Positions 1,979 through 63,773 are shown, numbered from the stretch's first letter. The stretch is 64,000 bases of DNA from an uncultured virus (IMG/VR IMGVR_UViG_3300009181_007169) (IMGVR_UViG_3300009181_007169), one strand, 5' to 3'. The notes: generated by a model not told the origin, from the sequence alone. Made by a program: numbers and translations.

Positions 1979-1988
1979 CTACGTATAA
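1960..1988 (+). promoter_or_regulatory. Class-II promoter TGAAAC-N16-CGTATAA, overlapping and divergent from the protease promoter
   Basis: G of CGTATAA is 13 nt before the ATG at 1996; no Shine-Dalgarno. Confidence 0.5.
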
Positions 1989-1995
1989 ATAATTA

Positions 1996-2271
1996 ATGAA
2001 TAATTCTGTGCGATTAAAGGAGAATGATGGCAAATATTCCATCATTAAAGACGGTGGCAAAAGAGCCTTGCGAGTTTTTAAAACTAAGCAAGAGGCGTTG
2101 GATTACATTCAGGAACACAATCTGAATATAGTTGAAGAAACTATGGATATTATTGTTTCCGTTCCTCCTATGCCTCAAGACAGCGAAACAAAACTGGTTG
2201 CTCCAAGACCATCGCTTTTTCAGCGACTTAAAAAAGCTTTATCAGAATTTATTTCTTCAGACAGAAATTAA
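1996..2271 (+). CDS. Small hypothetical protein, DUF2188-like N-terminus
   Basis: KYSIIKDGGKRALRVFKTKQEALDY pattern; has its own promoter motif. Confidence 0.5.
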   Translation: MNNSVRLKENDGKYSIIKDGGKRALRVFKTKQEALDYIQEHNLNIVEETMDIIVSVPPMPQDSETKLVAPRPSLFQRLKKALSEFISSDRN

Positions 2272-4631
2272 ATTATCTGATTAGTTGTACCATTTGAAAG
2301 ACCGCCAATTAGTTGTTGCATTGCTTGCTTAATAACCATTGCTACATCTTTTGGCTGTTTTTCAATTTCTTTATCTGTAAATCTCAACACTGTCCAACCT
2401 TGTCTGGATAAGTTTGTGTCCCTTGTTTTATCGGATTTTATTTTATTAGGGTTGTTGTGCCAAATTTCTCCGTCTGCTTCAACAGCTAATTTTATTTGAG
2501 GAAAAGCTCCGTCTAAAATATAATCTTTTCCAGGACCAGCTTCATATTGTGCATAGAAAGCTAATGGTGGCTGCATCCCCATAACAATCTTATATAATTT
2601 TTTCTCTAAAGAAGTGTAGCCATGAACGTTAACTTTATTTTTCACTTTAGCTTCTCTTACTAATTTCATTGCTTGAAAATTCTCAGGTATTCCTATTCCT
2701 TGACAATTCCAAGGCTTTACCATTTCTAAATTTTCTGGTATTTCTCCAACATAAGCCCTACCTGTTACAGCAAATTTTTCATTTAACTCTCTATCAATTT
2801 CACTGATGTAATTAGTTTCATCTAATTTTGACATTGCTGTTCTGTTAAAAGAAATTTCATTCATTAAATTAGATGCAAACTTGTATTGGCGATAAATAGT
2901 TTCAGCAGTGGCAGGAGCACCAGGTGCTGGCGCTGGTGATGCAGGAGCTTCTGGCACTGTACCCATGCCAAGATCACCACCAACTGGTTCTGCACCTGGC
3001 ATAGCACCCATCTCTCCTCCTTCAGCCCCTGGTGTTAAAGGTTGGTTAAGTGCACCTCCACCAAATCCTTGACCACTCACTCCGCCAAATCCTATGTTCA
3101 TGTCTGTGTCCATAACTTCAGGAGCATTAACAAAATTCATTCCTTGTTCAAATCTTAATCTTTCTACTTCTTGATCCCAATTTAATCCAAATTCTTCAAC
3201 TAAAGTTTCTGCAGAAATAGTACCATTTTGCTGTGCTGTAACAAGCATTTGAAGCGTACCAGTGTTATCTTTTAATCTTAAAGGATCAAAAATAATCTTT
3301 GGATAAATTATTTCTTCTTGACCCCCATCACCAGTAGCATAAAAACCATTCCACTCAGCGCATGGTTTAAATATTTTTTGTTCAATAAAATGTTGCATTT
3401 CTCTTCGCCAGCTTTCTAATCTTTCATTCATTGCCAACAAGCCAACCTGAGCACTACCATAGTTTGGACCTTCCCCGTTAAGCAATCCTTTATTCAACAT
3501 TAGACCGTCCAGGATTTCTCCATCTAATAAATCAAATTCCGAGGATACATTTAAAACTTGAGATCCAGCGCCAACAAATTCATATTTAAATGCATGAGGA
3601 ACTACTAAAGTTAAATTGGGGTCATTTGCCACTGCTGCAAGTTGTTCTTGCACAGAATCAAGGTCTGCCTGAGAAGCTGGTCGATTATCATCACCCACCA
3701 TTACAATTTTAGTAGGAATGATGTGTCTTTCAGCAATGAGCCATTGTGCCTGTCTTAATTTATCTTTATAAGCTAGAGTAACAAAAAGAGGTTTAACAAG
3801 TGATGTTCCATAATCTGCCCAATAATCAGAACCGTGTTTAAAATGGTGTATACATATTGGATCTAAAGGAATTGGTTGTTTTGATCTAATTTTAGCCTTA
3901 ATCCCATCTGGAATTTGCTCAAAAAGTTTTCTAGGATTTCCTTCCATTACAATTTTGATTTCTCTATCATTAGGCAAGTAAGCATAAAGAGGCTCAGTTG
4001 AAATAAAACCAGGAGTAATCATCACTGAATCTGGATTTAATAAAGTCATTGATTTCCAGCTTGCACCTTTATGTTCACATTTTTGACCTGTTTTTTGATC
4101 AAACATTGATCCAAAGCAATGAGGACAATCAATTTCAGTTAAAACAAATGCATCTCCATACAAATAGTAGTTACCTGAAATCAAAGGTAAGAATTTTTGG
4201 AAATTTAATTTTTCAATTAATTTCTCAAAATAATCTTTTACCACTCCAGATTTACATTCAAGTTTCCAGCCATTAAAAGGGAAGTTTGTGTAAAAATCTA
4301 TACCAGCTGCAACTTTTGGCTCATTATTACGCCACCAATTTGCCCAAAGATAGATTTCTTTTCTTGTGTTTGGAATTTGGAATGACGATGGAGTAAGAAA
4401 TGGGCTATAAAAGTTTGGCTGTGTAGTGGTGTTATTTAAACCTCCACCTGTTGACATTTGAGCATATCTGCCACCTGTAGCACCAAAACCTTTTGCTGTT
4501 CTTAATTCTGCCCAGTTTCTTCCAGATTGCCTATTGTTTCCATTTCTAGCTTCTGTTTTTCCTACTATTTTTCTTGTAGCTTCTGTGAGTACTGACGCCA
4601 ATGTTGGCATTGAATTGATATTGTTAGACAA
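2268..4631 (-). CDS. Portal protein with C-terminal DUF559/Vsr-like endonuclease domain
   Basis: Portal-like core (EPKVAAGIDFYTNFP, YGDAFV, YGTSLVKPLF, KDKLRQAQ), Gly/Pro linker, then LDGAFPQIKLAVEADGEIWH...DKTRDTNLSRQGWTVLRF; TTG start with GGAG SD. Confidence 0.8.
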   Translation of the reverse strand: MSNNINSMPTLASVLTEATRKIVGKTEARNGNNRQSGRNWAELRTAKGFGATGGRYAQMSTGGGLNNTTTQPNFYSPFLTPSSFQIPNTRKEIYLWANWWRNNEPKVAAGIDFYTNFPFNGWKLECKSGVVKDYFEKLIEKLNFQKFLPLISGNYYLYGDAFVLTEIDCPHCFGSMFDQKTGQKCEHKGASWKSMTLLNPDSVMITPGFISTEPLYAYLPNDREIKIVMEGNPRKLFEQIPDGIKAKIRSKQPIPLDPICIHHFKHGSDYWADYGTSLVKPLFVTLAYKDKLRQAQWLIAERHIIPTKIVMVGDDNRPASQADLDSVQEQLAAVANDPNLTLVVPHAFKYEFVGAGSQVLNVSSEFDLLDGEILDGLMLNKGLLNGEGPNYGSAQVGLLAMNERLESWRREMQHFIEQKIFKPCAEWNGFYATGDGGQEEIIYPKIIFDPLRLKDNTGTLQMLVTAQQNGTISAETLVEEFGLNWDQEVERLRFEQGMNFVNAPEVMDTDMNIGFGGVSGQGFGGGALNQPLTPGAEGGEMGAMPGAEPVGGDLGMGTVPEAPASPAPAPGAPATAETIYRQYKFASNLMNEISFNRTAMSKLDETNYISEIDRELNEKFAVTGRAYVGEIPENLEMVKPWNCQGIGIPENFQAMKLVREAKVKNKVNVHGYTSLEKKLYKIVMGMQPPLAFYAQYEAGPGKDYILDGAFPQIKLAVEADGEIWHNNPNKIKSDKTRDTNLSRQGWTVLRFTDKEIEKQPKDVAMVIKQAMQQLIGGLSNGTTNQII

Positions 4632-4663
4632 ATTTCACTCCTTTGTTTTTTGTACATTAATTT

Positions 4664-4688
4664 TTATGAAATTTCTTTAAATTAACCT
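4664..4688 (-). promoter_or_regulatory. SigH-like promoter AGG-N18-ATAA for the portal gene
   Basis: Minus strand AGG ttaatttaaagaaatttc ATAA. Confidence 0.5.
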
Positions 4689-5001
4689 AGTTTGTATTCC
4701 AATCTGACATTCTTGTGTAATTATCATCTTGATTTAGTGGCAAATCTTTTTTAGATTCTAATAAATATGGAGCACCTTGACCTGTTGATTTTGTTCTAAC
4801 AGGTTGCCTTACTTCGTTCATCAATGAAGGGTTTTTAACAATATTTTCTCTTTCTGTTTCTAAAGCTGATTCTAAGTTTAAATTATCTTTTTTTACAGGC
4901 TTGGGAATATCGGGCGAATTTGTAAACAATGCTTTGTCCTTGTTTTGAATTTGCTCCGTGTACAAATCAATATAATCTTTGGCAAATCGATACCAGGACA
5001 T
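4687..5001 (-). CDS. Hypothetical, probable head-associated protein
   Basis: 104 aa, begins MSWYRFAK; head module. Confidence 0.6.
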   Translation of the reverse strand: MSWYRFAKDYIDLYTEQIQNKDKALFTNSPDIPKPVKKDNLNLESALETERENIVKNPSLMNEVRQPVRTKSTGQGAPYLLESKKDLPLNQDDNYTRMSDWNTN

Positions 5002-5003
5002 TT

Positions 5004-7691: not shown

Positions 7692-9143
7692 TTAGTTCAC
7701 CTTCTTTCCGTTTACATAATCTGCAGCAACATCTTTGTAAAATTGCTTGTCTTGATAATCTAAAGTTTCATTCCAATAACGAATGAATTCATTTTTTGAT
7801 TCTGTTGAAAGTTTAGCTTCTTTAATCATTGTCTTAATTAAAGAATTTTTCACATTATTGGAAACATTAGAAGAATATACTTGTTTAATTTCTTCACTAA
7901 GCTTTTGGACCTCAGGAGAAATTACAGGCTTGCACATTGCATTTATATATTCTTCTGGCATTCCAAGAGATTTAGCGATTTTCTTAAAAGCATTTCGTTG
8001 TGCTGTAGAAAATTTTTCAGGTGATTTGAAAGCTAATGTTGCGTCAAGAGATAAATCTCCAGGAACCTTTTTCTTATTCTTTGGGTCCATTGGGTCCAAA
8101 TTATCATCTAACATTTCTTCATCTGTAAACAAATTCTCTTCAGCCATTCTAAGAATTTTTTCTCTTCTAGCAACTCTTGAGGAAATTTCAGATTGTTTTT
8201 CAATGGCTGAAGCAATTCTTTGTCGATTAGCTTTTCTGGCTGCTAAGATTGTATTGACGAGTTTTGTGTCGCCAGCAGCTTTTGCAGCTTCAATTGCTTC
8301 GGCGCTTATTTGATTTGGATGTGTAAATGCTATTTTTTTCATGGTATTATTATTGGTCAACGCAAACTCGTTTCGGTTTGCAGGATCTTCAAGAGTTTCA
8401 TTGTCTTTTTCATTTGTTTCAGATTCATCTGTCATTTCTGGTTCATCTTCAACAAAATCTTTCAAAACATTGTCTTTTCTGGCTTTGGTTATAAATCTTC
8501 CAACTCCTGACTCACCATCAGATTTCTTCAATTCATAAAGATTTTCTAAAAACTCTTGATACAATTCTGAATTTGATCTATCAATTGTATATACATAATC
8601 TTTCAATCCTTCTTTTACTGCAGCCTTTAGGTAAACTTTGCCATCAGCCAATTTTATTATTAGTTCTTTGACCCATGAGTTATTTGGATAAAATTCAAAG
8701 TTATATAGTTCAGAATCTGGATTCAAATATGATTTCATGATTGAAAGTTTTTCCATTTTTCCATTTGAATTAGAAACTGATACATTTTCATTTTGATTTT
8801 TATCTTGATCTTTCATGTCGGGAAGTTTGCTTATTTCATTATAAAGTGTATCTACAGTCATATTAGGGTCAATTTTTTCTTTCAATTCGACTCTTAATTT
8901 TTCTTTTGTTTCTGGATCTAGATTTTTAATATCAGGATGATTATTAAAAGCTTCATTGAAAATTTCTTCAATTTCAGGGTTTACAGTTGCTAATTTTAAC
9001 AAAGCTTGTATTTCATTTGATTGATTGTTTGCGAATTTTTGATTTTGGATGTTATTTTCAACAACATCCCAGTCAATTCCAGAAAATGTAATTTTCGAAC
9101 CCATATTCACGCTTAAATTATTTGGAAAAACTCTATCTGCCAT
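7692..9143 (-). CDS. Hypothetical head-module protein, possible internal KTSC-like segment
   Basis: 483 aa; GGAG SD; several K-x-A motifs. Confidence 0.6.
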   Translation of the reverse strand: MADRVFPNNLSVNMGSKITFSGIDWDVVENNIQNQKFANNQSNEIQALLKLATVNPEIEEIFNEAFNNHPDIKNLDPETKEKLRVELKEKIDPNMTVDTLYNEISKLPDMKDQDKNQNENVSVSNSNGKMEKLSIMKSYLNPDSELYNFEFYPNNSWVKELIIKLADGKVYLKAAVKEGLKDYVYTIDRSNSELYQEFLENLYELKKSDGESGVGRFITKARKDNVLKDFVEDEPEMTDESETNEKDNETLEDPANRNEFALTNNNTMKKIAFTHPNQISAEAIEAAKAAGDTKLVNTILAARKANRQRIASAIEKQSEISSRVARREKILRMAEENLFTDEEMLDDNLDPMDPKNKKKVPGDLSLDATLAFKSPEKFSTAQRNAFKKIAKSLGMPEEYINAMCKPVISPEVQKLSEEIKQVYSSNVSNNVKNSLIKTMIKEAKLSTESKNEFIRYWNETLDYQDKQFYKDVAADYVNGKKVN

Positions 9144-9166
9144 TTTTTACTCCGATATTTAAAGTA

Positions 9167-9190
9167 TTCTTTAAGAATTTCTTTTTACCT
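9167..9190 (-). promoter_or_regulatory. SigH-like promoter AGG-N17-AGAA
   Basis: Minus strand AGG taaaaagaaattcttaa AGAA. Confidence 0.55.
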
Positions 9191-11202: not shown

Positions 11203-11651
11203 TATTCTCCTTTTTTACTTGCCAATCTTGAAAATGTGTGGAAGTCAAATTTTTCCGAAGCACGATTTTCATTCAAAGCATTTTTTGTAGATAAATACGA
11301 ATCGCGCAAAGCTGTTCTACCTCTATCAGTTATTTTAACAGACCTACCATTGCCAGAAATTAAACCTTCGGCTCGAAGAGCTAAAATTGTTTCAGAATCT
11401 ATTGAATTTGGTATTGAGCAATATCTTTCATTCGTGTCGTGAATAGCACTGACAACAAAATCTGTGTTTTTGTCAATATCTTTAAGAGCTTCAATTGTAT
11501 TAATTGAATATTTTTTATTCTTGTTAACAGATGCAGTAGATTTCAACAAAATTGATTGAAGCTCAGAAAGCTGAAATTCTGGCTGTAATGAGTCACCAAA
11601 AGTGATTGATAATGATTCTTGTTGATGTATTGGTATGATTGGCTGAGGCAT
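11202..11651 (-). CDS. Hypothetical protein, possible winged helix
   Basis: ILALRAEGLISGNGRSVKITDRGR resembles a wHTH wing. Confidence 0.5.
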   Translation of the reverse strand: MPQPIIPIHQQESLSITFGDSLQPEFQLSELQSILLKSTASVNKNKKYSINTIEALKDIDKNTDFVVSAIHDTNERYCSIPNSIDSETILALRAEGLISGNGRSVKITDRGRTALRDSYLSTKNALNENRASEKFDFHTFSRLASKKGE

Positions 11652-11660
11652 AGTATTATT

Positions 11661-11684
11661 TTCTTTTTAGTTGATATTTTACCT
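11661..11684 (-). promoter_or_regulatory. SigH-like promoter AGG-N17-AGAA, 9 nt before ATG
   Basis: AGG taaaatatcaactaaaa AGAA aataatact ATG. Confidence 0.6.
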
Positions 11685-12119: not shown

Positions 12120-13180
12120 TAAAGAATTCCTATGCCATTATATGGGCTATTTGTCGTATCAGGGTTTTCAATTGTAGAATTTGTACCTAATGTATCATTA
12201 CCCCAAGGAGTAGAACTAACATATCCTCTTTCTGGAAATCGTCCTTTTAACCATGCGTCCCAATCTATACCATAAAACATATCTGGATCCAATCTATCAA
12301 TTCCTTTGGGTGATTTTTTGAGTTTTCTTAATTTTATTTCCAGAGGTTGATTGTTCTTTTTTGCATCATTTGTAATTTGAGAGGGCAATGGATTTAATGA
12401 ACCTTTGTAATCATGAAAAGTTTGTGATTCTTCTGGTGTATTAATTAAAAGCGTGGAATTTTGCATGTTATGGTTATCGGGGAATGTTGGATTATTTAAA
12501 TCCTTAATGTACTTATCAACCCCCATACCTAATTCGTATTGTGGAGCTATTCCAGTAAATGCCTCAGAATATTGAGCATAAGCGTAGGGATCATTTTTGT
12601 ATTCCTCCCAAGGTGTTAGCTGTTCGCTGGATGTTGGTAAAGATGTTCTCTCTCTTCTAAAAGAATCAGGACCATTTTTTTCATTGTTCAATCTTATTTC
12701 CATTGGCGCATCATCAGGATAAACCACTGACGCATGTTTAGAAAAATCTATATTTGTGTTTTTTCTAAAGTTTTCAAGCAAATCTTCTACTGTATTTAAT
12801 TTTTTGTGAATTATTTCAGTTTTGTTTTCAACATTTTTTTTTGAAAGATCTTTTATATATTGTTCTTTGTTTCTGATTTTTTGTTTAACGCTTAGTTCTT
12901 TTCTTTCTTCTGGAGATAGTAAGTATGAAGGTATATCAGATTCTAAACTTTTATGAAATGTTTCTAGCAAAGTTTCTAAAGGTCTTTCATAATCACCTAA
13001 AATTTCTGGTTTTCTGTAGCGACCCATTAAATCATCCAAAGATGTATCTCCACTAAAATTGTTAATACCATAACCTGCATATCCAGATGGACCTCCTCTA
13101 AACTGAGGTGAACCTCCCGGTGAAAAAGGTGCATATTGACCACCTACTCCTCCAAAATTTGCAAGCCTTTTACTCATCAA
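12119..13180 (-). CDS. Hypothetical head-module protein
   Basis: 353 aa; MSKRLAN followed by a Gly-rich segment. Confidence 0.6.
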   Translation of the reverse strand: MMSKRLANFGGVGGQYAPFSPGGSPQFRGGPSGYAGYGINNFSGDTSLDDLMGRYRKPEILGDYERPLETLLETFHKSLESDIPSYLLSPEERKELSVKQKIRNKEQYIKDLSKKNVENKTEIIHKKLNTVEDLLENFRKNTNIDFSKHASVVYPDDAPMEIRLNNEKNGPDSFRRERTSLPTSSEQLTPWEEYKNDPYAYAQYSEAFTGIAPQYELGMGVDKYIKDLNNPTFPDNHNMQNSTLLINTPEESQTFHDYKGSLNPLPSQITNDAKKNNQPLEIKLRKLKKSPKGIDRLDPDMFYGIDWDAWLKGRFPERGYVSSTPWGNDTLGTNSTIENPDTTNSPYNGIGIL

Positions 13181-50492: not shown

Positions 50493-50494
50493 TT

Positions 50495-52866: not shown

Positions 52867-52868
52867 GT

Positions 52869-53389: not shown

Positions 53390-53575
53390 ATGATTAAGGT
53401 AGTAGCAAGACAAAATGAAAATATCGATTCTCTTCTTAGAAGATTCAACACAGCTGTTGTTCAAGATGGAGTTCTAAAAGAACTTAAGGATCGCTCAAGA
53501 TATGAAAAACCTTCTGTAAAAAAACGAAGAAAAGCAATGGAAAGAAGAAAAGAACTGAAAAATCCTGTAAAATAA
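53390..53575 (+). CDS. rpsU: Ribosomal protein bS21
   Basis: MIKVVARQNENIDSLLRRF...GVLKELKDRSRYEKPSVKKRRK. Confidence 0.92.
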   Translation: MIKVVARQNENIDSLLRRFNTAVVQDGVLKELKDRSRYEKPSVKKRRKAMERRKELKNPVK

Positions 53576-53579
53576 CTTT

Positions 53580-54383
53580 ATGAAGTTTAAACTCGATTCA
53601 GTTTCAAACGAAGAAAAAGCTAAAGCAGCAAATCTATACACTCAAACTATTCCAACACAACCCGTTCCAGGTCAAAAACCTCATATTAATGTGATTTTTT
53701 GTATTCCTGGGCGGGAATTTACTGCAAATTTTTTGCAAAGTTGGACTAATCTCTGTAACGCTATGTACCAAAATGGTATCTCTTTTGCGCTCAGCAATGC
53801 ATACAGCCCTGTAGTTTACTACGCTCGTACAGCTTGCTTGAGAGCACACGTTTTAAGAGGGAGAGACCAAAAACCATTTAATGGCGAATTCACTTATGAT
53901 TACATCATGTGGATCGACTCAGATATTGTTTTTGCACCAGAAGATTTCTTTAAACTTCTTGAAAGAATGCAAAAAAATCCAAATATGCAATTGCTTTCCG
54001 GAGTTTATTTAATGGCAGATGGACATCACACTACTTGTGTTGATGAATGGGATGAAGATTATTTCCAAAATAATGGATCATTCCAATTTTTAACTTTAGA
54101 TCAAATGGAGAAAAAATCAAAACTTCCTGAAACACAAAAAAATGGTGGCGTGTTTGAATGTGTTTACATTGGTTTTGGCTGGCTAATGGTCAGATATGGT
54201 GTTCATGAATCATTTAGTTACCCATTCTTTAAACCTCAATTTCATGAACTTAAGGGCGGTTCTATTTATGACTTTTCAAGCGAAGATGCAAGCTTTTTCT
54301 TGGAACTTAGAGATAAGGGAATTAAATGCTATGTCGATCCTGATGTTAGGGTAGGACATGAAAAGTCTGTAGTCCTAAAATAA
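53580..54383 (+). CDS. GT-A fold glycosyltransferase (family 2-like)
   Basis: DYIMWIDSDIVF (DxD), GFGW, SEDASF, VGHEK. Confidence 0.8.
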   Translation: MKFKLDSVSNEEKAKAANLYTQTIPTQPVPGQKPHINVIFCIPGREFTANFLQSWTNLCNAMYQNGISFALSNAYSPVVYYARTACLRAHVLRGRDQKPFNGEFTYDYIMWIDSDIVFAPEDFFKLLERMQKNPNMQLLSGVYLMADGHHTTCVDEWDEDYFQNNGSFQFLTLDQMEKKSKLPETQKNGGVFECVYIGFGWLMVRYGVHESFSYPFFKPQFHELKGGSIYDFSSEDASFFLELRDKGIKCYVDPDVRVGHEKSVVLK

Positions 54384-54395: not shown

Positions 54396-54432
54396 TTAAT
54401 TAAAAATAGGGCTTAGCCCTATTTTTAATTAA
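54396..54432. terminator. Perfect 17-bp inverted repeat; terminator overlapping a SigH-like promoter (54408-54432)
   Basis: TTAATTAAAAATAGGGC-tta-GCCCTATTTTTAATTAA. Confidence 0.7.
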
Positions 54433-54441
54433 ATATTTATT

Positions 54442-54801
54442 ATGAGCTTAGTAGAATTATTTCTGACATTACAAAATCAACTTAGAATTTATCATTGGCA
54501 AACAGAAAGCTATGCGGAACATAAAGCTCTTGGTAAAGCATATGAAAAATTAGATGACTTAATTGACTCGTTCATGGAAATTTACATAGGTAAATACAAA
54601 AGACCAGTGGCAAAAGATAAATTTGAAATTTCATTATTTAATTATTCAAATAATTTCAAAGAAAATATTGATGCTTATATTGAAGTGTTAGAAGACAAAA
54701 TTCCAGCAGCTCTCAATGAAAAAGATACAGATTTACTTAACATTAGAGATGAAATGCTTGGTACTCTCAATCAACTAAAATATCTTCTTACACTAAAATA
54801 A
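54442..54801 (+). CDS. Ferritin/Dps-like four-helix protein (DUF5856-like)
   Basis: YHWQTESYAEHKAL...LDDLIDSFME...LLNIRDEM...YLLTL. Confidence 0.75.
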   Translation: MSLVELFLTLQNQLRIYHWQTESYAEHKALGKAYEKLDDLIDSFMEIYIGKYKRPVAKDKFEISLFNYSNNFKENIDAYIEVLEDKIPAALNEKDTDLLNIRDEMLGTLNQLKYLLTLK

Positions 54802-54871: not shown

Positions 54872-56266
54872 TTATGCAACAACAGCAGTAGATGGCTGAC
54901 CCGAAGTAATTGGAACAGATTTATCAGACTGTGTTGTTGGTGTTGTTATTGGTGTTTTTGGAGCAACCGGAGCAGATTGTGTAATAGGCTTTAGAAGCTG
55001 ATTTCTTAAGTAAGCCCCCACTTTATTTGGATCTTCGAACTGATTGTTCATTACCATATTTTTAAAATTATTGTTAATTGTTTTTCTGTCTTTCATTTGA
55101 ATCAGTTGATTACTAGCTAATAAATCTTTTGGAGATAAATCAGATTGTGTAATAGTTGGTTGCAATCTTTTGGCTTCGTTGAAAGCGTACCCATTTGACA
55201 AAGAACAAATTAAATCAACACTAAAGCCAATACTTAAACAAATTACAGACCAACCAAGTGAACTTCCACTTGTTAAAGCTACTACCGCAGGTATTTTGAA
55301 AACAATTTGAAGTACATTAAATAAAAAATTTAAAAAATAACAAACTTTTGATCCTGGACTTCCGGTTTTATTTTGAAATTGATTATAGAGGCTTATGAAA
55401 CTCGTGAGCCCATCAACAACGCTAAAAGCTTCAGATAACATCGTTTTTATCACTGGGACACTAAAAACATTTCCCAACCCAGGTATTATTTTTACACAGT
55501 TATGTAATTGTTCTGCAATTTTTTCAATTAAATTTACAGCTTTGGCTGATAAATTTGGTTTAGCAGCGTTGACAGCTACTTCAATATCTTTTGATAATTG
55601 TTGTGTAGTCGTTTTTTGTATTTTTGCTATTTGTGGCAATACTTCTTTATAATTTTTGCCTTTTGCCACAGCTTTAATTGAATCAATTATTTTTGGATCT
55701 TTCAAGGATTTTATATAAATTAAAATTTGTGGGTCAATTGTGCTAGCAAATAAAAAAATTATTTTATTTGCTTCTGAATAAACACTTTTAACTTGTTTTT
55801 TGTAACTTTTAGCCAATTGTTTTAAAATTGCATCATATTTTCCTAAAAGCTGTACATTATTTTGTTTTTTAGCTATAGCATACATAGTCCCAGCTTCTTT
55901 AGCATCATTCAATACAATTTTTCTAAAAATATCTGCGTTGTATAATGCATTTGCTCTTTGCGAATAAGCTTCTGCGCCTGTCAATGCTAGAGGTTTTAAT
56001 ATTCCAAGGTTTTGTAATGTATTTTTGGTACCACCGCCACCACCAGTACCACCGCCACCAGTGGTACCACCGCCGAAAATTCTTTCTGCGTCTAGTTGAG
56101 TTTTTTTAAGACTATTCTCTTCTTGAGGTCCTGCTTCTCTCACCATCCCCAACACAATCTGATCAATTTTGGAAGCCAGTTTAGGGTTTTTAATATCCAA
56201 CTCGTTTGCATAGGAAAGCAAATCTGATATATTATTTTGTTGCATGCATGGAACACAAACTGACAT
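54872..56266 (-). CDS. Hypothetical protein with leader, Gly-rich linker and hydrophobic hairpin
   Basis: LLSYANELDIKNPKLASKIDQI...MVREAG; GGGTTGGGGTGGGGG; hydrophobic YFLNFL...IGFSVDL region. Confidence 0.65.
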   Translation of the reverse strand: MSVCVPCMQQNNISDLLSYANELDIKNPKLASKIDQIVLGMVREAGPQEENSLKKTQLDAERIFGGGTTGGGGTGGGGGTKNTLQNLGILKPLALTGAEAYSQRANALYNADIFRKIVLNDAKEAGTMYAIAKKQNNVQLLGKYDAILKQLAKSYKKQVKSVYSEANKIIFLFASTIDPQILIYIKSLKDPKIIDSIKAVAKGKNYKEVLPQIAKIQKTTTQQLSKDIEVAVNAAKPNLSAKAVNLIEKIAEQLHNCVKIIPGLGNVFSVPVIKTMLSEAFSVVDGLTSFISLYNQFQNKTGSPGSKVCYFLNFLFNVLQIVFKIPAVVALTSGSSLGWSVICLSIGFSVDLICSLSNGYAFNEAKRLQPTITQSDLSPKDLLASNQLIQMKDRKTINNNFKNMVMNNQFEDPNKVGAYLRNQLLKPITQSAPVAPKTPITTPTTQSDKSVPITSGQPSTAVVA

Positions 56267-56275
56267 ACTTTTTAT

Positions 56276-56328
56276 TTACACAATCTGATTCAATTTACCT
56301 CCAAGGTAAAAAAGTAAAATAATTAGAA
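56276..56328. promoter_or_regulatory. Back-to-back divergent SigH-like promoters, each 9 nt before its start codon
   Basis: Minus AGG(56300)-N18-GTAA-N9-ATG(56266); plus AGG(56304)-N18-AGAA-N9-GTG(56338). Confidence 0.65.
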
Positions 56329-56337
56329 AATAAACTT

Positions 56338-56925
56338 GTGGTTAAACTTGACATTCCAAAAGAGCTTCCTAAAAATAAACTTGAAAAAGCAGGTGTTTCA
56401 AAAAAAACTAATGAGGAGCATCTAAAGCTCTGGCAAGGCTATGCCAAAAACAATAACAAAGCTGTAGAGGCTTTAAACCAAAGAAAAAATCTTAAAAACG
56501 TTAATTCCACTTTTTCAGAGGTGAGAAATCAAAAAATGGGATTATCTTTTGCATATGGCGGATTTCTTAACCACAAAGTGTTTTTCAATCATCTTAATGG
56601 AGATGGTGAGCCCACTAAAGAGTTTCTTGCATTAATAAAAGCAGATTATGATAGTTTTTCTAATTATATTAATGATTTAAAAGCCACCGCACTTGCCTCA
56701 AGAGGCTGGTCATTTATTGGATACTGCTATGACCACGAGATGATAATTAATGTAATTGGAGATACACAAAATACATTTCCTATGTGGAATTGTGAGCTTA
56801 TTGGAGCCATAGACATGTACGAGCATGCTTACTTTCCAGATTTTGGCACTGACCGAGAAGGCTACATTGATGCAATCCTAGAAATTATGGATTGGAACCA
56901 AGTGGTGAAAAATATCAGGAATTAA
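56338..56925 (+). CDS. Fe/Mn superoxide dismutase
   Basis: EEHLKLWQGY, NHKVFF, RGW, DMYEHAY.DFG. Confidence 0.9.
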   Translation: MVKLDIPKELPKNKLEKAGVSKKTNEEHLKLWQGYAKNNNKAVEALNQRKNLKNVNSTFSEVRNQKMGLSFAYGGFLNHKVFFNHLNGDGEPTKEFLALIKADYDSFSNYINDLKATALASRGWSFIGYCYDHEMIINVIGDTQNTFPMWNCELIGAIDMYEHAYFPDFGTDREGYIDAILEIMDWNQVVKNIRN

Positions 56926-57576: not shown

Positions 57577-58041
57577 CTAATCCATTTCCATACACAATCT
57601 GAGAGCTATTTCTTCAGCTTTTTTATCATAAGTATTCCAATCTGGTATTTCTCTTCCAGCACTACATTCGCAGAATAAATCTACCAGATGCTTAGGATAT
57701 CCTAATAGTTCACCCCATTCTTTATCTTTACCTTGCACTTCATAAATCGCCCGAAACTTATCAAAATCTTGTCTTTCACAAATAACTATAGAATCTTCAT
57801 CTAAAAAAAGCAATTCATTACCTCTGTAAACACATCGGTCAATAAAATAAGAATTTACATCAGATTGTGTGTCAGAAAATAAAGCCGCAGGTTTATGCCC
57901 CAAAGCAACAGCCGCTACATCTGGGCTGTCCAAATTAAGAAATCCATGCGCTGAAGGAATATAAGATAAAGATGGATATCTATTTCTTAAATACTTATTA
58001 TTATAAAACTCATGCACTTGTTGTTGCAATTTTTCATACAT
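57577..58041 (-). CDS. Hypothetical protein
   Basis: 154 aa; GHKPAA...WGELLGYP; CGTATA upstream. Confidence 0.6.
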   Translation of the reverse strand: MYEKLQQQVHEFYNNKYLRNRYPSLSYIPSAHGFLNLDSPDVAAVALGHKPAALFSDTQSDVNSYFIDRCVYRGNELLFLDEDSIVICERQDFDKFRAIYEVQGKDKEWGELLGYPKHLVDLFCECSAGREIPDWNTYDKKAEEIALRLCMEMD

Positions 58042-58094
58042 ATTAATTTAATATACGAATGAAAACATCAATTTTTCGCCCGATTATTTTCAAA

Positions 58095-58119
58095 AGGAAT
58101 TTAATCTAAAGACATCTAA
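58095..58119 (+). promoter_or_regulatory. SigH-like promoter AGG-N18-CTAA, 9 nt before GTG
   Basis: AGG aatttaatctaaagacat CTAA tataaaact GTG. Confidence 0.55.
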
Positions 58120-58128
58120 TATAAAACT

Positions 58129-58542
58129 GTGTGGTATAAATTTAGTCAATTGAAAACACCCTTGAAGCTACCTGATGGTAGTGTTTATATCCCAGAACAA
58201 TCAGCAATTAAAAACCCTGCTGCGGTGCAACAACTTACAGGTTTTACTTATGAGCAGTTACCAAAATCTACTGGAGCTGCGCCTACACCTGTGATGCAAC
58301 CAGCACAAACAACTAATAAATCCACCGCCTTAGAGCCACAAAAAAGAGAAACTGTTCCAATGAATAGTAATTTTATACCCTCTGATGCACAAGTACAAAA
58401 TGCCTCTAAGCAAATGCAAACAGAAATGTTTGGAAGAGCAAATCAATTTGGACCCACCGCTCAAGAGTTAAAAAGATACCTTGAAGGTAAACCATCTGTG
58501 CCTGGAGGTTTAGGCTCAGGGCAATTGGTTGTTGAAAAATAA
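58129..58542 (+). CDS. Hypothetical P/Q-rich protein with WYKFSQ leader
   Basis: MWYKFSQ start. Confidence 0.6.
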   Translation: MWYKFSQLKTPLKLPDGSVYIPEQSAIKNPAAVQQLTGFTYEQLPKSTGAAPTPVMQPAQTTNKSTALEPQKRETVPMNSNFIPSDAQVQNASKQMQTEMFGRANQFGPTAQELKRYLEGKPSVPGGLGSGQLVVEK

Positions 58543-58543: not shown

Positions 58544-58568
58544 AGGTTCAATATTCGAAAAAATATAA
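58544..58568 (+). promoter_or_regulatory. SigH-like promoter AGG-N18-ATAA, 9 nt before GTG
   Basis: AGG ttcaatattcgaaaaaat ATAA ataaagatt GTG. Confidence 0.6.
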
Positions 58569-58577
58569 ATAAAGATT

Positions 58578-61235
58578 GTGTATAAATTCAGTTCCATTTC
58601 AAAATATTTTGACAATTTTAATTTAGTGTTGAATAATATTCACCAACTTATTACAAATGACAATTTCTTGAATGTAATTCAAGCAGAAAGTTTTTTAAGA
58701 GATTATTTATTAAGTGAAAATAATCAGAATAAAAGTAATTATGAATCAAAATTATTGTTATGGACAGATGTTCACTCAGAAATTAATTCATTATTTAATG
58801 ATTGTGTTTTAGAATCTAAAGCGCTAAATTTACAGATACCTGTGCAAATTGATTATAATCCTAATAAAAAAGTGGGTGGCTCAGCAAAAGTAGATGGAAC
58901 TATAAGTATTAATGGTGCTTCACTTAAAAATCAATCAATATCATCACTTAAATCAAATTTAGCTCATGAAATTACACATGTTCTCAGTAAGATACAAAGC
59001 AAAAAAAGTGACTGGTGGCGCAATGAAGCTCTCTTAGATGCAACAGACATAAAACATCAAAGTCAATTGCCCCCAGAAATGACACAATTCGGAAGATATT
59101 ATTACCAAAGCCCAGAAGAAGCAAGGGCGAATTTACAGGCTTTGATAGAACAATATCATTTATCTTTAACAAAAGAAAAAATTAAAGAAAAAGCATTAGA
59201 AGATGGTATTTCTTATGATGAAGAAGTGAAAAAAATAATATTTAAGATTATTAAAGAATTTACAGAAAGACATGTTAAAAACAAATCTTCGGAAGAACAT
59301 CCTTTTGGACCAGAGTATTTAAATATTATAAGAAAAGGGCTTTATGATTATATTCATCAACAAAAAGGCTTAAAACCAATAGAAAATATCCCAGCACCTC
59401 TTCAATTAATTATTCAAAACGCTTACAGTGATTTCAATAATGAAAAATATAGAATGGGGCATATTAAAGCTTATGAAAATCTTTTAATGAAATTAAAAGA
59501 AATATCAGGTAAAACTTCAGGAGCTACTTTAAGAAGTAACCAAAAATTTCTTCAACCTTATGTTGAAGATGTTGAAAAGAGATTAGAAATGTTAAGACAA
59601 AAAATGAAATCTACTGAAAATAATAATACTTTTTCTTCATCATTCAATTTTAAAAAGTATAGTGAGTCTAAAAAAAAACTTGAAATTTACTTACCAGATT
59701 ATGTGGATGATATCTTAAAAGATATTACACAATCTGGTGGTAAAGCTTTAATAGTTGGTGGTGCTGTTAGAGATGCTATTTTAGGTAAATCTCCAAAAGA
59801 TATTGATTTTGAAGTTTATAGATTGTCTTATGATCAATTAAATAATATTTTATCAAAATATGGCAAAGCAGACCTTGTAGGTCAAATGTTTGGTGTAATT
59901 AAATTTGTAGGTAAAGATGGATCTGATTTTGATTTCTCTCTTCCAAGAAAAGATTCTAAATCAGGTGTTGGACATAAAGATTTTAGCGTGGAAATAAGTG
60001 GCGATCTCACACCTATAGAAGCCGCAGCAAGAAGAGACTTTACCATTAATGCTATTTCTTATGACCCAATTACCCATGAAATTGTAGACCCATTTAATGG
60101 AAGAGCTGATCTTGAAAATAAAATTTTAAGGCATACATCTAATGCCTTTTCTGAAGATCCGCTCAGAGTGTTGAGAGGAATGCAATTTGCTTCTAGATTT
60201 GGATTTGAAATAGCACCAGAAACTGCAAAATTAGCAGAATCCATTAGAGATGAATTTAAACATCTTCCTAAAGAAAGAATTTATGAAGAGTTCAAAAAAC
60301 TTGTAACTAAAGGCATTGAACCTGGTAAAGCTTTAGATTTTCTTTACTCTACTGGGTGGTCTAAAAACTTCCCTGAAATACACGATCTAAAAGACACACC
60401 TCAAGACCCTGAGTGGCATCCTGAAGGCGATGTTTCTACTCATACCGCTTATGTTATGAACGAAGCAGCTAGAATTGCTGATAGAGAAAATTTAAGCCCT
60501 GAGGATAGAGAAGTGCTTATTTACGCAGCATTGGCGCATGACTTTGCTAAACCTGAAACTACAGCAGTGATTAATAAAAAAGGTAAAGACAGAATTACCT
60601 CTCATGGACATGAAGAATTGGGTGGACCTAAAGCTGAATCTTTCTTAAAATCAATTGGTGCACCAAATGATGTTATTAAAAAAGTAATTCCCTTGGTGCA
60701 ATTTCATTTAAGCCATATTCATCACTCAAATACATCAAAACAAGAATCTTTTGTTAAAAACTTGGCTGAAAAGATTTACCCCTCTAATATTAAAATGTTA
60801 GAACTTTTAATAGAAGCTGATCATTCAGGCAGACCACCTCTTCCTAAACATCTTCCAGAACAAGCAAGAGAAATGTCTGAATTAGCTAAAAAATTTAATG
60901 TTTATGAAGGTAAACATCCTGACCTACTTCAAGGCAGAGACATTATGCCCTATCTGAATAATAAAGGTGGACCAATAATCGGGCAAATTTTAAAAGAACA
61001 TAGAAATTTAATTCTTAATCATGATCCTAGAATGACTGATAGAGAATCCGCGCTAAAATGGCTTTCCAATAGAATGCAAAGAGAAGCAGCATTCATAAAT
61101 GGACATGATGTTCTAAATTACACAAACTATACAGGATCTAAAATAAAAGAAATTTTAGATCAAGCATGGGAAGCTCAATTGAGAAAAGAATTAAATTCTA
61201 GAGAAGAAGCAATTGATTGGCTTAAACAACAATAA
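58578..61235 (+). CDS. cca: Fusion: HExxH zincin-like domain + tRNA nucleotidyltransferase (CCA-adding) with HD domain
   Basis: LAHEITH; VGGAVRD, KDIDFE, RRDFTINA, EDPLRVLR, ERI, WHPEG, LAHDFAK, HGHE. Confidence 0.9.
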   Translation: MYKFSSISKYFDNFNLVLNNIHQLITNDNFLNVIQAESFLRDYLLSENNQNKSNYESKLLLWTDVHSEINSLFNDCVLESKALNLQIPVQIDYNPNKKVGGSAKVDGTISINGASLKNQSISSLKSNLAHEITHVLSKIQSKKSDWWRNEALLDATDIKHQSQLPPEMTQFGRYYYQSPEEARANLQALIEQYHLSLTKEKIKEKALEDGISYDEEVKKIIFKIIKEFTERHVKNKSSEEHPFGPEYLNIIRKGLYDYIHQQKGLKPIENIPAPLQLIIQNAYSDFNNEKYRMGHIKAYENLLMKLKEISGKTSGATLRSNQKFLQPYVEDVEKRLEMLRQKMKSTENNNTFSSSFNFKKYSESKKKLEIYLPDYVDDILKDITQSGGKALIVGGAVRDAILGKSPKDIDFEVYRLSYDQLNNILSKYGKADLVGQMFGVIKFVGKDGSDFDFSLPRKDSKSGVGHKDFSVEISGDLTPIEAAARRDFTINAISYDPITHEIVDPFNGRADLENKILRHTSNAFSEDPLRVLRGMQFASRFGFEIAPETAKLAESIRDEFKHLPKERIYEEFKKLVTKGIEPGKALDFLYSTGWSKNFPEIHDLKDTPQDPEWHPEGDVSTHTAYVMNEAARIADRENLSPEDREVLIYAALAHDFAKPETTAVINKKGKDRITSHGHEELGGPKAESFLKSIGAPNDVIKKVIPLVQFHLSHIHHSNTSKQESFVKNLAEKIYPSNIKMLELLIEADHSGRPPLPKHLPEQAREMSELAKKFNVYEGKHPDLLQGRDIMPYLNNKGGPIIGQILKEHRNLILNHDPRMTDRESALKWLSNRMQREAAFINGHDVLNYTNYTGSKIKEILDQAWEAQLRKELNSREEAIDWLKQQ

Positions 61236-61494: not shown

Positions 61495-62128
61495 TTTTGA
61501 AATCACTGATATACAATTGAAAGAAATACAAAACTCTGATCTGAGAGAATTCGGGCTTTTTTTAACAGGTATGCATTTTAAAGAGGATCGAATGAATCTT
61601 ATGAAAAAATTGAAAGATTTGGAAGATTGTGTTATTCCGCTTGTGCATATTAGAGTGGATTCTACTCCAGAAGAATTAGAATTTTGTTTGGAAAATTTCA
61701 AAACAGAATGGTTCAATCTTCATGGTATTCATAAAGATGTTTTAATTAATAATCAAGAACTCTATGAATATAGACATTATATCCTTGCTGAAAATTCTAG
61801 AATTTTGACAAAATTACAATTAGAACATTTTGCAGGAATTTGTCTTGATTTATCACATTTCTTAGAAGATCTTATTAATAGAAGAAACCATGTGCATGAA
61901 ATTAAAGAATCTTTGAAAATGTTTCCAGTGTATTGTAACCACATTTCAGCAGTGAGAAAAGATCAAAAAAATTGGTACTCAGAACATATTGGCAACTATT
62001 CTTCAGATTTTAATTATTTGAAAGAAATACCTAAAGAATATTGGGGATCATGTTGCTCGTGCATGGAACTCGAAAATTCAATCAAAAAACAAATGGAATA
62101 TATTGAATACATTAAAACAATTGTATAA
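61451..62128 (+). CDS. Xylose-isomerase/AP-endonuclease-2-like TIM barrel protein
   Basis: LAEN, ICLDLSH, NHIS, MELE metal-ligand pattern. Confidence 0.55.
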   Translation: MKNNMKIIPSITTSNFEITDIQLKEIQNSDLREFGLFLTGMHFKEDRMNLMKKLKDLEDCVIPLVHIRVDSTPEELEFCLENFKTEWFNLHGIHKDVLINNQELYEYRHYILAENSRILTKLQLEHFAGICLDLSHFLEDLINRRNHVHEIKESLKMFPVYCNHISAVRKDQKNWYSEHIGNYSSDFNYLKEIPKEYWGSCCSCMELENSIKKQMEYIEYIKTIV

Positions 62129-62137
62129 TTCTACAAT

Positions 62138-62443
62138 ATGTACATTACTAAAAATATTTCATTCAATGAAAGAGAAATCTATTCCTTTATAGAACTTACC
62201 ACAGGTGTGAGATATTTGCCATCACAAATTAAAATTGTTCCATCATACAATGTGGCAGAAAAAACTACATTGAATTTTGTCTGCACACACTCAAATACAC
62301 AAACTATCTTAACTCTTGAAGAACTTCTAGAATGCATAGGATACTCAAGATCCTATGCAAACGTTAAAATCACCTATAATAAACCCTGGTGGAAATTTTT
62401 TGGTAGAAAAATTATTGGCTTCTCAGTAGATGTTAAGATTTAA
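62138..62443 (+). CDS. Hypothetical protein
   Basis: 101 aa; KPWWKFF; GTATAA upstream. Confidence 0.55.
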   Translation: MYITKNISFNEREIYSFIELTTGVRYLPSQIKIVPSYNVAEKTTLNFVCTHSNTQTILTLEELLECIGYSRSYANVKITYNKPWWKFFGRKIIGFSVDVKI

Positions 62444-62519: not shown

Positions 62520-62975
62520 CTACTGCCAATCCGACAGCCCCATAAGTCTCAACTGTTTTTTCATCTTGTTTGATATATTTGGATTCATGTCAAGAGCATA
62601 CCAATCTACATAATCTTCAAATTCATTAATAAATTTGTCAGAAAGTGGTTGTTTTCGTGAAATTTGTTCCCAATCCAGCCTGTCTGCGAATTCACGAATA
62701 AAATCCTCAGAAAGTATTGGTTTAGATGAAATATAATTCCAACCTTTCTGGTCTATACTGTCTGCATTTTCTCTAATATACTCTTCAGATAATTTTTTGT
62801 AGTAATCAAGATTTTTCCACTTACCAGGTAATTTTTCTCTATCACTCATTCCATTTTCTTCTTCAGCTAATTTCAAAAGGATGGAATCCATCGCTTTTGC
62901 TTCTTTAGTAAGTCCTGCATAGTCAAGCTCTGTGGCAACAGAAGCAATCTTTCTCATCAGATTGTGTTTGTTCAT
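62520..62975 (-). CDS. Trp-repeat protein (LSEDFIREF..LDW) with shared leader
   Basis: MRKIASVATELDYAGLTKEAKAMDSILLKLAE then three LSE/DxFI...W repeats. Confidence 0.7.
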   Translation of the reverse strand: MNKHNLMRKIASVATELDYAGLTKEAKAMDSILLKLAEEENGMSDREKLPGKWKNLDYYKKLSEEYIRENADSIDQKGWNYISSKPILSEDFIREFADRLDWEQISRKQPLSDKFINEFEDYVDWYALDMNPNISNKMKKQLRLMGLSDWQ

Positions 62976-62984
62976 AATTTAATT

Positions 62985-63009
62985 TTAAAAATTAGATAAA
63001 ATTATCCCT
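62985..63009 (-). promoter_or_regulatory. SigH-like promoter AGG-N18-TTAA, 9 nt before ATG
   Basis: AGG gataattttatctaattt TTAA aattaaatt ATG. Confidence 0.55.
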
Positions 63010-63532
63010 TTTTTTTATAAAAAAAATTTAAGCAAACAACAAATTGAGAATTTATAACGCACATTCCAAATTCTTGTTCGTTTTTCCTGGTGGCTAAAAC
63101 TCCCAAAAATTGTGGCGGGGGAAGGAAAAAAGCTTTGTTTTCAGGGCAAAGTTCTGATTCGTGCACATCAAGATTAGGTATTTCTGTGGTGCGAGATGGA
63201 TGAACCACCACCTGAGCGCACAGAAGATTATTTTCTTCAAAAAATGAATCCACGTCTAACCAAGCAAAATGGTTGTCTAAACTTTCTGCACTTACATTTC
63301 TAATTGTGTCAGATTCATCTACACTTTCAATCAGTATTTTAATTAATGCATCATCCCAATTAACATCGTCAGTGGTCATCGGAATAAGTATATCTTCGTA
63401 GCCATTTTTTTTAACAATGTTATTTTCTCTTGAATGAAAAACAAGAGGCATAGCATCAGACACTTCATATCTAGCCGAGCCCCCAACTGGCACTTCGTCA
63501 AACCATAATACTTTGCGAGCTAAATCATACAT
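63002..63532 (-). CDS. Shortened major-capsid-like protein
   Basis: LARKVLWFDEVPVGGSARYE...VVVHP...FFLPPPQFLGV...FGMCVIN recalls HK97-fold capsids of this phage type; likely start MYDLARK. Confidence 0.45.
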   Translation of the reverse strand: MYDLARKVLWFDEVPVGGSARYEVSDAMPLVFHSRENNIVKKNGYEDILIPMTTDDVNWDDALIKILIESVDESDTIRNVSAESLDNHFAWLDVDSFFEENNLLCAQVVVHPSRTTEIPNLDVHESELCPENKAFFLPPPQFLGVLATRKNEQEFGMCVINSQFVVCLNFFYKKKG

Positions 63533-63562
63533 AATTAATTTATACAATTAGTTTTTAAAAAA

Positions 63563-63639
63563 TGGTACTCCGAACGGGATTTGAACCCGTGATCTTCGCC
63601 GTGAAAGAGCGATGTCCTGAACCGCTAGACGACCGGAGC
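63563..63639 (-). tRNA. tRNA-Glu (TTC), CCA encoded
   Basis: GCTCCGG...TCGCT-CTTTCAC-GGCGA...ACGGG-TTCAAAT-CCCGT-TCGGAGT-A-CCA. Confidence 0.95.
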
Positions 63640-63640
63640 A

Positions 63641-63739
63641 TGGGAGCGGGGGTGGGATTTGAACCCACGACCTCCGAGTTATTAAAAGCCCCTTAAGGCA
63701 CTTAATGAGCCCGACAAGCTACCACTGCTCTACCCCGCA
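63641..63739 (-). tRNA. Initiator-type tRNA-Met (CAT) with a 24-nt insertion in the anticodon loop
   Basis: TGCGGGG-TA-GAGC-AGTGGTA-GCTT-G-TCGGG-CTCAT-[24 nt]-AA-CTCGG-AGGTC-GTGGG-TTCAAAT-CCCAC-CCCCGCT-C-CCA; 1:72 mismatch and A11-U24 are initiator features. Confidence 0.85.
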
Positions 63740-63744
63740 ATAAT

Positions 63745-63773
63745 ATTATACGATTTTTTTAAGATTTTGTTCA
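63745..63773 (-). promoter_or_regulatory. Class-II promoter TGAAC-N16-CGTATAAT driving the tRNA pair
   Basis: G of CGTATAAT is 12 nt before the tRNA 5' end. Confidence 0.6.

Follow-up and report, generated by a model that had tools for sequence, protein, structure and literature searches.

Leaderless transcripts are known both from phages and from bacteria. In phiYS40 and Lalka27a, which are phages of Thermus, the first base of most mRNAs is the A or G of the initiator codon (PMC3594737; bioRxiv 10.64898/2026.04.20.719267). In the Deinococcus-Thermus group, a TANNNT-type box lies 6–7 bp before ATG or GTG with no need for a -35 box and no Shine-Dalgarno (SD) sequence, and leaderless-type genes represent about one third of the genes of D. 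radiodurans and leaderless mRNAs 60% of those of D. deserti (PMC12340547, PMC4007540). Giant phages whose promoters have been mapped provide other cases: phiKZ has no leaderless transcript, and the leaders of AR9 measure 26–491 nt (PMC8244752, PMC5312081). The promoters recognized by SigH (Spo0H) have the consensus AGGA-N17/18-GAAT, and only 7 mRNAs are described as leaderless in Sporomusa (PMC12456013). Freshwater phages that infect Bacteroidetes and encode ribosomal protein bS21 have been proposed to favour their own mRNAs, the bS21 of Bacteroidetes hiding the anti-SD through a C-terminal aromatic residue (PMC9723584). The DNA analysed here is a stretch of 64,000 nt (the window) from the uncultured virus IMGVR_UViG_3300009181_007169 (IMG/VR), in which two promoter classes lie so close to the start codons that the mRNAs of the corresponding genes are very likely leaderless or nearly so.

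The window is a 32% GC piece of a jumbo phage genome that encodes a portal, a terminase, a head protease, DNA polymerase III alpha, a beta clamp, two sigma-70 family proteins, bS21 and two tRNAs. Its closest relative, G001 (347 kb), shares about 75% DNA identity with it over the longest matches; five other relatives (G002–G006) were also compared. A quick DnaE tree, which leaves the clade unrooted, places the window together with G001, G002 and G003 on a long stem (support 100), and G004–G006 and 14 further loci fall outside this group. A comparison with 50,697 phage records brought up no close relative that is cultured or annotated, and a literature search that had most subscription journals outside its reach found no description of this phage clade. 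The gene caller, which is blind to motifs, called 76 genes in the window; it picked a start at 2143 instead of 1996, which makes the count of promoter-adjacent genes in the window one short. Start codons were picked among candidates by motif fit, and shuffles and decoys used the same candidates.

The first promoter class has the pattern AGG-N18/19-[G/T]AA, then 9 nt, then the codon. A previous reading of the window, made from the sequence only, had claimed a fixed spacing of this class at ten starts, and the [G/T]AA box indeed begins 12 nt before the codon (9 nt between) at 10 out of 10. The distance from AGG to [G/T]AA is 18 nt in two of them and 19 nt in the eight others, and all ten have a T at -1. 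They had also been said to lack SD sequences, and neither GGAG nor GAGG is found at -17 to -5 of any of them. At 4631, 9143 and 52033, for which long leaders had been proposed, the box lies 35, 26 and 28 nt upstream, respectively, and GGAG is present. All 24 gene starts that the sequence-only reading listed for the two classes have the geometry ascribed to them. Its total of 16 SigH-like promoters depends on the cut-off, the ten at offset 12 being borne out: a matrix trained on relatives only gives 73 hits in the window, 24 of which have a start within 90 nt (ten at offset 12, one at 13 and the rest at 15–86). In the relatives, the spacer is 19 nt in 69 of 88 sites and 18 nt in the 19 others. 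This spacing agrees with that of SigH (Spo0H) promoters, AGG(A)/GAA(T) with 17–18 nt, and the class is looser than the consensus. In SigH promoters, about 12–14 nt separate GAAT from +1. For six class 1 genes, offset 12 is kept in all 18 orthologues from G001–G003, although the upstream 45 nt show only 42–82% identity.

The second class consists of a YGTA(T/C/A)A box for which no -35 consensus emerged. As had been reported for 11 starts, its G lies 13 nt (five starts), 14 nt (four) or 15 nt (two) before the codon, and it lies 12 nt before nucleotide 1 of the Met tRNA. Additional sites that had not been listed were found at 19287, 21870, 28493, 47446, 49494, 52869 and 53580, and the offsets span 11 to 16 overall. 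The box of 53580 is spelled by the last codons of bS21 (Pro-Val-Lys-stop, 53566-53575 on the + strand) in all four genomes of the near clade. Since class 2 boxes also precede tRNA and tmRNA genes, whose products are not translated, they are not translation signals.

Either box is found 11–15 nt before the start of 28 of the 76 window genes, as compared with an average of 3.8, and never more than 10, when the upstream DNA is shuffled 500 times, and with 4.0 expected from decoy offsets. A histogram of motif-to-start distances, the check that had been suggested for the window, was drawn for the 247 kb of G001 outside the match to the window and displays sharp peaks for both classes, with 13 starts at +12 versus 0.31 per offset for class 1 and 28 starts at +13 versus 1.83 for class 2. 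A generic sigma-70 scan of the window was uninformative (113 sites versus 93 in shuffles). The boxes could be viewed as RNA-level translation signals or as by-products of A/T-rich spacers rather than promoters, as the genome has 32% GC and 49 of the 73 class 1-like matrix hits have no start within 90 nt. This is extremely improbable: the shuffles, which keep composition, give 3.8 genes versus 28, and spacing is conserved while sequence drifts. The two boxes of class 1 at the rigid SigH spacing, their occurrence far from the codon together with a separate GGAG, and the presence of class 2 before tRNAs and tmRNAs point to both classes being real promoters acting at the DNA level.

Where these promoters abut the start codon, the mRNA would start on the A or G of the codon or 1–3 nt before it; class 1 probably uses the codon itself, and class 2 either position. 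Such mRNAs would be read through the ordinary leaderless route of the host, i.e., by recognition of a 5'-terminal AUG or GUG. Three tests that do not depend on spacing agree with the codon being the RNA start. First, bacterial transcription start sites favour a pyrimidine at -1 and a purine at +1 (PMC12456013), and a pyrimidine occupies -1 in 22 of the 28 promoter-adjacent genes of the window versus 18 of the 48 other genes (p 8e-4), in 134/173 versus 81/205 in G001 (p 7e-14), in 30/33 versus 12/46 in G002 and in 46/61 versus 36/77 in G003. For class 1 in G001, 81% of the sites have a pyrimidine at -1, versus 23–53% at -2 to -8. Second, TTG starts are nearly absent from promoter-adjacent genes (0/28 in the window; 2/173 versus 12/205 of the others in G001), as expected if only AUG or GUG work at the 5' end (PMC4007540). 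Third, GGAG or GAGG is found in 1/28 promoter-adjacent genes versus 15/48 others in the window and in 4/173 versus 64/205 in G001. Besides, the N-termini of orthologues begin at the same residue in most cases. Promoter-adjacent genes account for 20 of the 36 non-coupled genes of the window and 161/265 of those of G001, and for 8/12 and 51/74 of the divergent/head genes, respectively. The proposal that most first cistrons begin at or near the codon therefore stands in this form: most independently started genes probably do so within a few nt.

The 5' end of the tRNA, which the sequence-only reading had used to calibrate +1, had to be abandoned for this purpose: the mature end of a tRNA results from RNase P cleavage and thus only bounds +1. 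Among 36 viral loci in which such a tRNA follows a GTATAA box, the position of nucleotide 2 varies between G+8 and G+20. For the initiator tRNA, nucleotide 1 is located at G+12, 12, 12, 11 and 10 in the window, G001, G003, G002 and G006, respectively. In all five (window 63739 (-), L078:10505, L094:462, L103:5045 and L125:12545), nucleotide 1 is a T and nucleotide 2 a purine, and nucleotide 2 is found at G+11 to G+13, which are offsets used by leaderless start codons. More speculatively, the initiator tRNA may be transcribed without leader; a start at nucleotide 2 is another possibility, in which case base 72 would have no partner.

The boxes could also be promoters that give rise to leaders of 2–8 nt, or the genes could be translated from read-through mRNAs by SD-free A/U-rich initiation or by coupling. 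The range of class 2 offsets (11 to 16) fits this proposal, as does the location of many boxes inside or just behind the upstream gene. Moreover, transcription of a full-length initiator tRNA has to begin at G+12 or earlier (G+10 in G006), which implies leaders of 1–3 nt on ATGs located at G+13 to G+15. However, the offset of class 1 is fixed at 12, with T at -1 in 10 out of 10 sites and 81% pyrimidine at -1 in G001, and divergent head genes, 51/74 of which are promoter-adjacent in G001, cannot be read through. This alternative is thus rather unlikely, and leaderless or almost leaderless mRNAs are preferred for the promoter-adjacent genes. RNA data consist of one run (0.12 share of words) stored as contigs, which do not mark starts; 43 contigs map to 44001-64000, covering 24 of 30 bins, and there is no place where many molecules begin. 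One RNA piece ending at 58041 was considered as a start site and rejected, as its record continues unlike the window there.

The most interesting side of these data is a clade-wide difference in leader use. With one classifier, promoter-adjacent genes number 29/76 in the window, 178/378 in G001, 34/79 in G002 and 62/138 in G003, i.e., 303/671 (45%) in the near clade versus 207/1073 (19%) in G004–G006; decoy offsets give 5–7%, and 47 of the 303 cases belong to a third promoter class that is absent from the window. Among non-coupled genes, the proportion reaches 56–69% in the near clade versus 25–27% in the outer relatives. The orthologues of the leaderless genes of the window are themselves leaderless in 66 of 75 cases inside the clade (with L241) versus 8 of 67 outside, where SD-like signals are found in most; the rows of this comparison are interdependent, those without usable start are uncounted, and L016, L020 and L022 were left out as apparent duplicates. 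For example, gene 11651 has the same class 1 promoter followed by an SD leader in G004–G006, and gene 50495, leaderless in the window, has the same class 2 box and an SD leader in G001–G003. A motif-free scan of G004 and G005 returned SD words and GTATA at -13 on top. Taken as a whole, the phage clade would use the leaderless option for approximately 40–45% of its genes, against a share two to three times lower in its outer relatives, and would keep SD signals for internal cistrons and some major head genes. The SD-led outer and leaderless inner orthologues (for 50495, even close relatives) constitute matched natural pairs on leader loss, which also bear on the roles of phage bS21 and IF3. Furthermore, the rigid offsets fix start codons, many of them GTG, for the annotation of the clade.

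The third promoter class was observed in G001 (L075-L078, L091), where 42 cassettes carry an invariant TTTTCCAG, TTTAACA and TAT..T only 4 nt before ATG, with a pyrimidine at -1 in 42/42. The version found in G006 (L107-L109) differs (AAATCCCC ... ATATA). An ECF-type sigma gene of G001 (L091:400-987) lies under a third-class promoter, and its product may read this class.

The likely host is a bacterium of the Fimbriimonadia (Armatimonadota) in which leaderless mRNAs are already translated. Among the best 120 matches of the phage superoxide dismutase, seven are organism-named, six from Armatimonadota (four of them Fimbriimonadaceae or Fimbriimonas) and one from Woesebacteria. Fimbriimonadia are listed with 25% SD use (PMC10783764). 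A host-like sample was assembled from 62 of 80 metagenome loci carrying the bS21 type of a neighbour labelled Fimbriimonadales (the 18 weakest were left out); it is small (505,591 bases; 455 genes after removal of 9 duplicates) and GC-rich. In this sample, G-TA...T is located 13–14 nt before the start in 62/455 genes versus 13.5 for decoys (30 at 13 and 17 at 14) and in none of the 90 coupled genes; the phage classifier retains 52/455 genes (11%; decoy 2.7%). No class 1 peak was found near the starts of these 455 genes. As the same box is found at the same offset, class 2 looks like the housekeeping -10 box of a leaderless-making host.

The probable assignment of promoters to sigma factors, with its timing, is as follows. 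Class 2 would be a promoter reduced to its -10 box, for which the host housekeeping sigma factor is the most likely reader, and would drive replication genes, tRNAs and both phage sigma genes. The latter are indeed under class 2, the gene at 19951 directly and the second one through the run from 19287 to 17376, so class 2 should work before the phage sigma factors exist. Class 1 would be a promoter of the SigH type, with two boxes, that the SigH-like factor of the phage most likely reads at a later stage, and would drive head genes among others: its presence before the portal gene, the head protease-like gene and the 9143 run is consistent with a later class under this factor. In one scan against bacterial genomes, the SigH-like protein gave a single weak match, in Treponema. 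Another gene of the window, 25739-26650 (-), has no Pfam, NCBIfam or PHROG hit; a viral Sigma70_r2 cluster ranks third among its atlas hits (score 0.91, 149 shared features), which hints at one more sigma-like factor.

Several points weigh against the interpretation as a whole. Geometry, statistics, conservation and the clade difference are what was observed, and the RNA starts are inferred from them. Start choice was fitted to the motifs, yet the N-termini of orthologues mostly agree. The -1 signal is weak for class 2 (67% pyrimidine at -1 versus 22–60% at -2 to -8 in G001) and in the host-like loci (p 0.04–0.4). Coupling to the upstream gene also concerns seven of the 28 window cases, which may therefore be translated from longer mRNAs too. 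As the classifier was tuned on the near clade, the outer relatives and the GC-rich host-like loci may be under-counted and the contrast may be overstated. The SigH-like protein scores below the SigH cut-offs (114.4 versus 294.8 bits for TIGR02859; 117.9 versus 212 for NF006145). Lastly, the host assignment is a lead from sequence similarity, not a spacer match, and the one bS21 neighbour labelled Fimbriimonadales ranks only 20 of 150.

It had been suggested that phage bS21 and the initiator tRNA bias initiation toward leaderless mRNAs. In its broadest form, this proposal states that the phage retunes ribosomes by bS21, initiator tRNA and IF3 so that leaderless mRNAs outcompete the SD-led mRNAs of the host, leader loss being part of the strategy. 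This bS21 type is encoded by G001, G002 and G003 and was not found in G004–G006 (88–100% complete), and the clade that bears it is also the one rich in promoter-adjacent genes (303/671 versus 207/1073) and in leaderless orthologues (66/75 versus 8/67). G001 also encodes a full IF3, and a shift of IF2/IF3 levels was proposed for phiYS40 (PMC3594737). However, the co-occurrence of bS21 with the leaderless-rich clade involves one branch and offers no independent contrast, and class 2 leaderless genes exist without bS21, the G+13 peak comprising 22/364 genes in G004 and 21/287 in G005. In E. coli, bS21 supports the anti-SD, and ribosomes without uS2 and bS21 favour the leaderless lambda cI mRNA (PMC10491246). 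IF3 normally opposes leaderless initiation, which is favoured by a high IF2/IF3 ratio (PMC10783764), and the leader-rich G006 also has IF3 and an initiator tRNA, the leader-rich L247 likewise having IF3. SD-like signals are kept by the portal gene, 9143 and bS21 itself, and the major head gene of G001 has a G-rich SD-like run. The conserved tail of bS21 is explained by the overlapping class 2 box of 53580; this tail has no aromatic residue in the window and has one in only 1 of 8 close homologues. The initiator-type tRNA carries a 24-nt insert that can form a hairpin in its anticodon loop, so its function is not assured; an insert of the same length and similar sequence is found in G002 (L103:5045-5141) and is absent from G001 and G003. 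Introns are reported in tRNAs of Lak phages (10.1101/356790). The phiYS40 model, in which leaderless mRNAs occur only in later classes and early ones are leadered, does not seem to apply either: class 2 genes heading sigma and replication functions, presumably early, would also be leaderless, and leadered class 1 promoters head the portal gene and 9143. The suggested bias is therefore unsupported (leaderless genes without bS21 in G004 and G005, SD signals kept, tRNA insert), and ribosome retuning as a strategy appears quite unlikely. Equally doubtful is the scenario in which an Armatimonadota jumbo phage lineage turned a large part of its first cistrons from SD-led to leaderless in both the host- and phage-sigma classes and gained a ribosome-tilting bS21 that, alongside IF3 and a possibly leaderless initiator tRNA, would tilt initiation toward 5'-terminal start codons. 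If true, it would amount to a translational takeover by mRNA architecture plus a ribosomal protein swap.

Full-length IF3 with the DYG..Y motif is encoded at L075:2047-2559 (G001), L112:7629-8114 (G006) and L247:7714-8196. IF1 and S1 were not found in the five relatives searched, and a RegB search gave no match anywhere, its controls being likewise blank. G001 also carries a NusG-like gene (L091:12-338) and a tmRNA; a tRNA-Leu(TAA) with an intron of 211–218 nt is found in G001 and G006, and G006 has two tRNAs with a CTA anticodon (amber-reading; L121:14691-14858).

Table. Promoters, sigma factor genes and translation-related genes of the window, by position. Box+n and G+n give the distance from the first base of the class 1 box or from the G of the class 2 box.
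Position	Strand	Feature	Remarks
1939..1978	-	Class 1-like promoter	ATG 1941 at box+16 (~4-nt leader); head maturation protease-like gene
1982..1998	+	Class 2 box	ATG 1996 at G+13
4629..4688	-	Class 1 promoter, leader and GGAG	Portal gene 4631, TTG start
9141..9190	-	Class 1 promoter, leader and GGAG	First gene of 9143-4687 run
11649..11684	-	Class 1 promoter (AGG-N18-GAA)	ATG 11651 at box+12; offset 12 in G001-G003
13175..13212	-	Class 1 promoter, not in the sequence-only reading	ATG 13177 at box+13 (13-14 in relatives)
16020..16036	-	Class 2 box	ATG 16022 at G+13; next gene, 15315, is terminase large subunit
16813..17376	-	Second sigma-70 family factor (ECF-sized)	TIGR02937 72.9 bits, cut-off 42.9
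19232..19951	-	SigH/Spo0H-like sigma factor, candidate reader of class 1	Best NCBIfam hits are SigH models
19285..19302	-	Class 2 box	ATG 19287 (beta clamp) at G+14; heads run with second sigma gene
19949..19966	-	Class 2 box	ATG 19951 (SigH-like sigma) at G+14
21868..21884	-	Class 2 box within upstream gene's end	ATG 21870 at G+13
28491..28506	-	Class 2 box	ATG 28493 (RecJ-like) at G+12
35215..35232	-	Class 2 box	ATG 35217 (DNA polymerase III alpha) at G+14
44440..44475	+	Class 1 promoter	ATG 44473 at box+12
45799..45815	-	Class 2 box	ATG 45801 at G+13
45820..45856	+	Class 1 promoter	ATG 45854 at box+12; back to back with class 2 promoter of 45801
46874..46891	+	Class 2 box	GTG 46889 at G+14
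47432..47448	+	Class 2 box within upstream gene's end	ATG 47446 at G+13
48116..48152	+	Class 1 promoter	ATG 48150 at box+12
49482..49496	+	Class 2 box	GTG 49494 (GMP reductase/IMPDH family) at G+11
50481..50497	+	Class 2 box	ATG 50495 at G+13
50742..50781	+	Class 1-like promoter	ATG 50779 at box+15 (~3-nt leader)
52031..52082	-	Class 1 promoter, leader and GGAG	Gene 52033
52114..52131	+	Class 2 box	ATG 52129 at G+14
52857..52871	+	Class 2 box	ATG 52869 at G+11; gene preceding bS21
53390..53575	+	Ribosomal protein bS21	Coupled to upstream gene; AAGGT before ATG
53566..53582	+	Class 2 box in last codons of bS21	ATG 53580 at G+13
54408..54444	+	Class 1 promoter	ATG 54442 at box+12; overlaps terminator-like palindrome 54395-54433
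56264..56300	-	Class 1 promoter	ATG 56266 at box+12; no orthologue found
56304..56340	+	Class 1 promoter	GTG 56338 (superoxide dismutase) at box+12
58039..58057	-	Class 2 box	ATG 58041 at G+15
58095..58131	+	Class 1 promoter	GTG 58129 at box+12
58544..58580	+	Class 1 promoter	GTG 58578 (tRNA nucleotidyltransferase-like fusion) at box+12
62122..62140	+	Class 2 box	ATG 62138 at G+15
62973..63009	-	Class 1 promoter	ATG 62975 at box+12
63530..63546	-	Class 2 box	ATG 63532 at G+13
63563..63639	-	tRNA-Glu(UUC)	
63641..63739	-	Initiator-type tRNA-Met(CAU)	24-nt insert in anticodon loop, right after anticodon
63739..63752	-	Class 2 box	Nucleotide 1 of initiator-type tRNA at G+12

Other features of the window deserve mention. 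An inverted repeat of 15 pairs (50765-50801, +) spans the ATG of 50779, and the palindrome that overlaps the -35 box of 54442 has 18 pairs and is terminator-like on both strands. Short N-terminal tags, MWY(R/K)... and M(N/K)..L..IASVATELD..G, are common to many unrelated-looking proteins, often with a class 1 promoter and a GTG start (4687-5001, 58129, 58578, 56928 and 62975 in the window; L078 and L090); they are possibly sorting signals for head proteins. The portal protein (2268-4631, -) carries a C-terminal DUF559 nuclease-like domain, and the primase is divided between two genes, one for Toprim and the other for the CHC2 zinc finger (28490-29242, 36100-36627).

Leaderless phage transcripts being already known, this clade seems to add another case, with far more leaderless use than in its own relatives; the small set of phages whose first cistrons are mostly leaderless thereby gains a giant member, which probably infects the little-studied Armatimonadota. 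It would resemble phiYS40 and Lalka27a in starts on the A or G of the initiator codon, including at phage-specific late promoters, and in a host able to translate such mRNAs. It differs from them by its host phylum, its genome of about 350 kb, its several sigma factors, bS21 and IF3, and leaderless mRNAs were demonstrated on RNA there whereas they are deduced from sequence here. Moreover, the leaderless state marks middle and late genes in phiYS40 but would mark both the housekeeping-type and the SigH-type classes in the present phage. The TA of class 2 starts at -12, as in the tested leaderless -10 motif of Deinococcus (PMC12340547), but YG comes before the phage box, which lacks a fixed last T, and a second, two-box class behaves alike. 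Class 1 shares the AGG core, the spacer and the GAA box with the SigH promoters of Bacillota, and a phage sigma factor has its best family hits with SigH; on the other hand, the fourth -35 base is free and the -10 box is often TAA(A/T). Like the bS21-encoding freshwater phages, the present one is a large phage with bS21, but this bS21 has no aromatic tail residue and the phage uses SD signals. Finally, phiKZ and AR9 are also giant phages with mapped promoter classes, but they have no leaderless transcripts, the opposite of what is proposed for the clade of the window.

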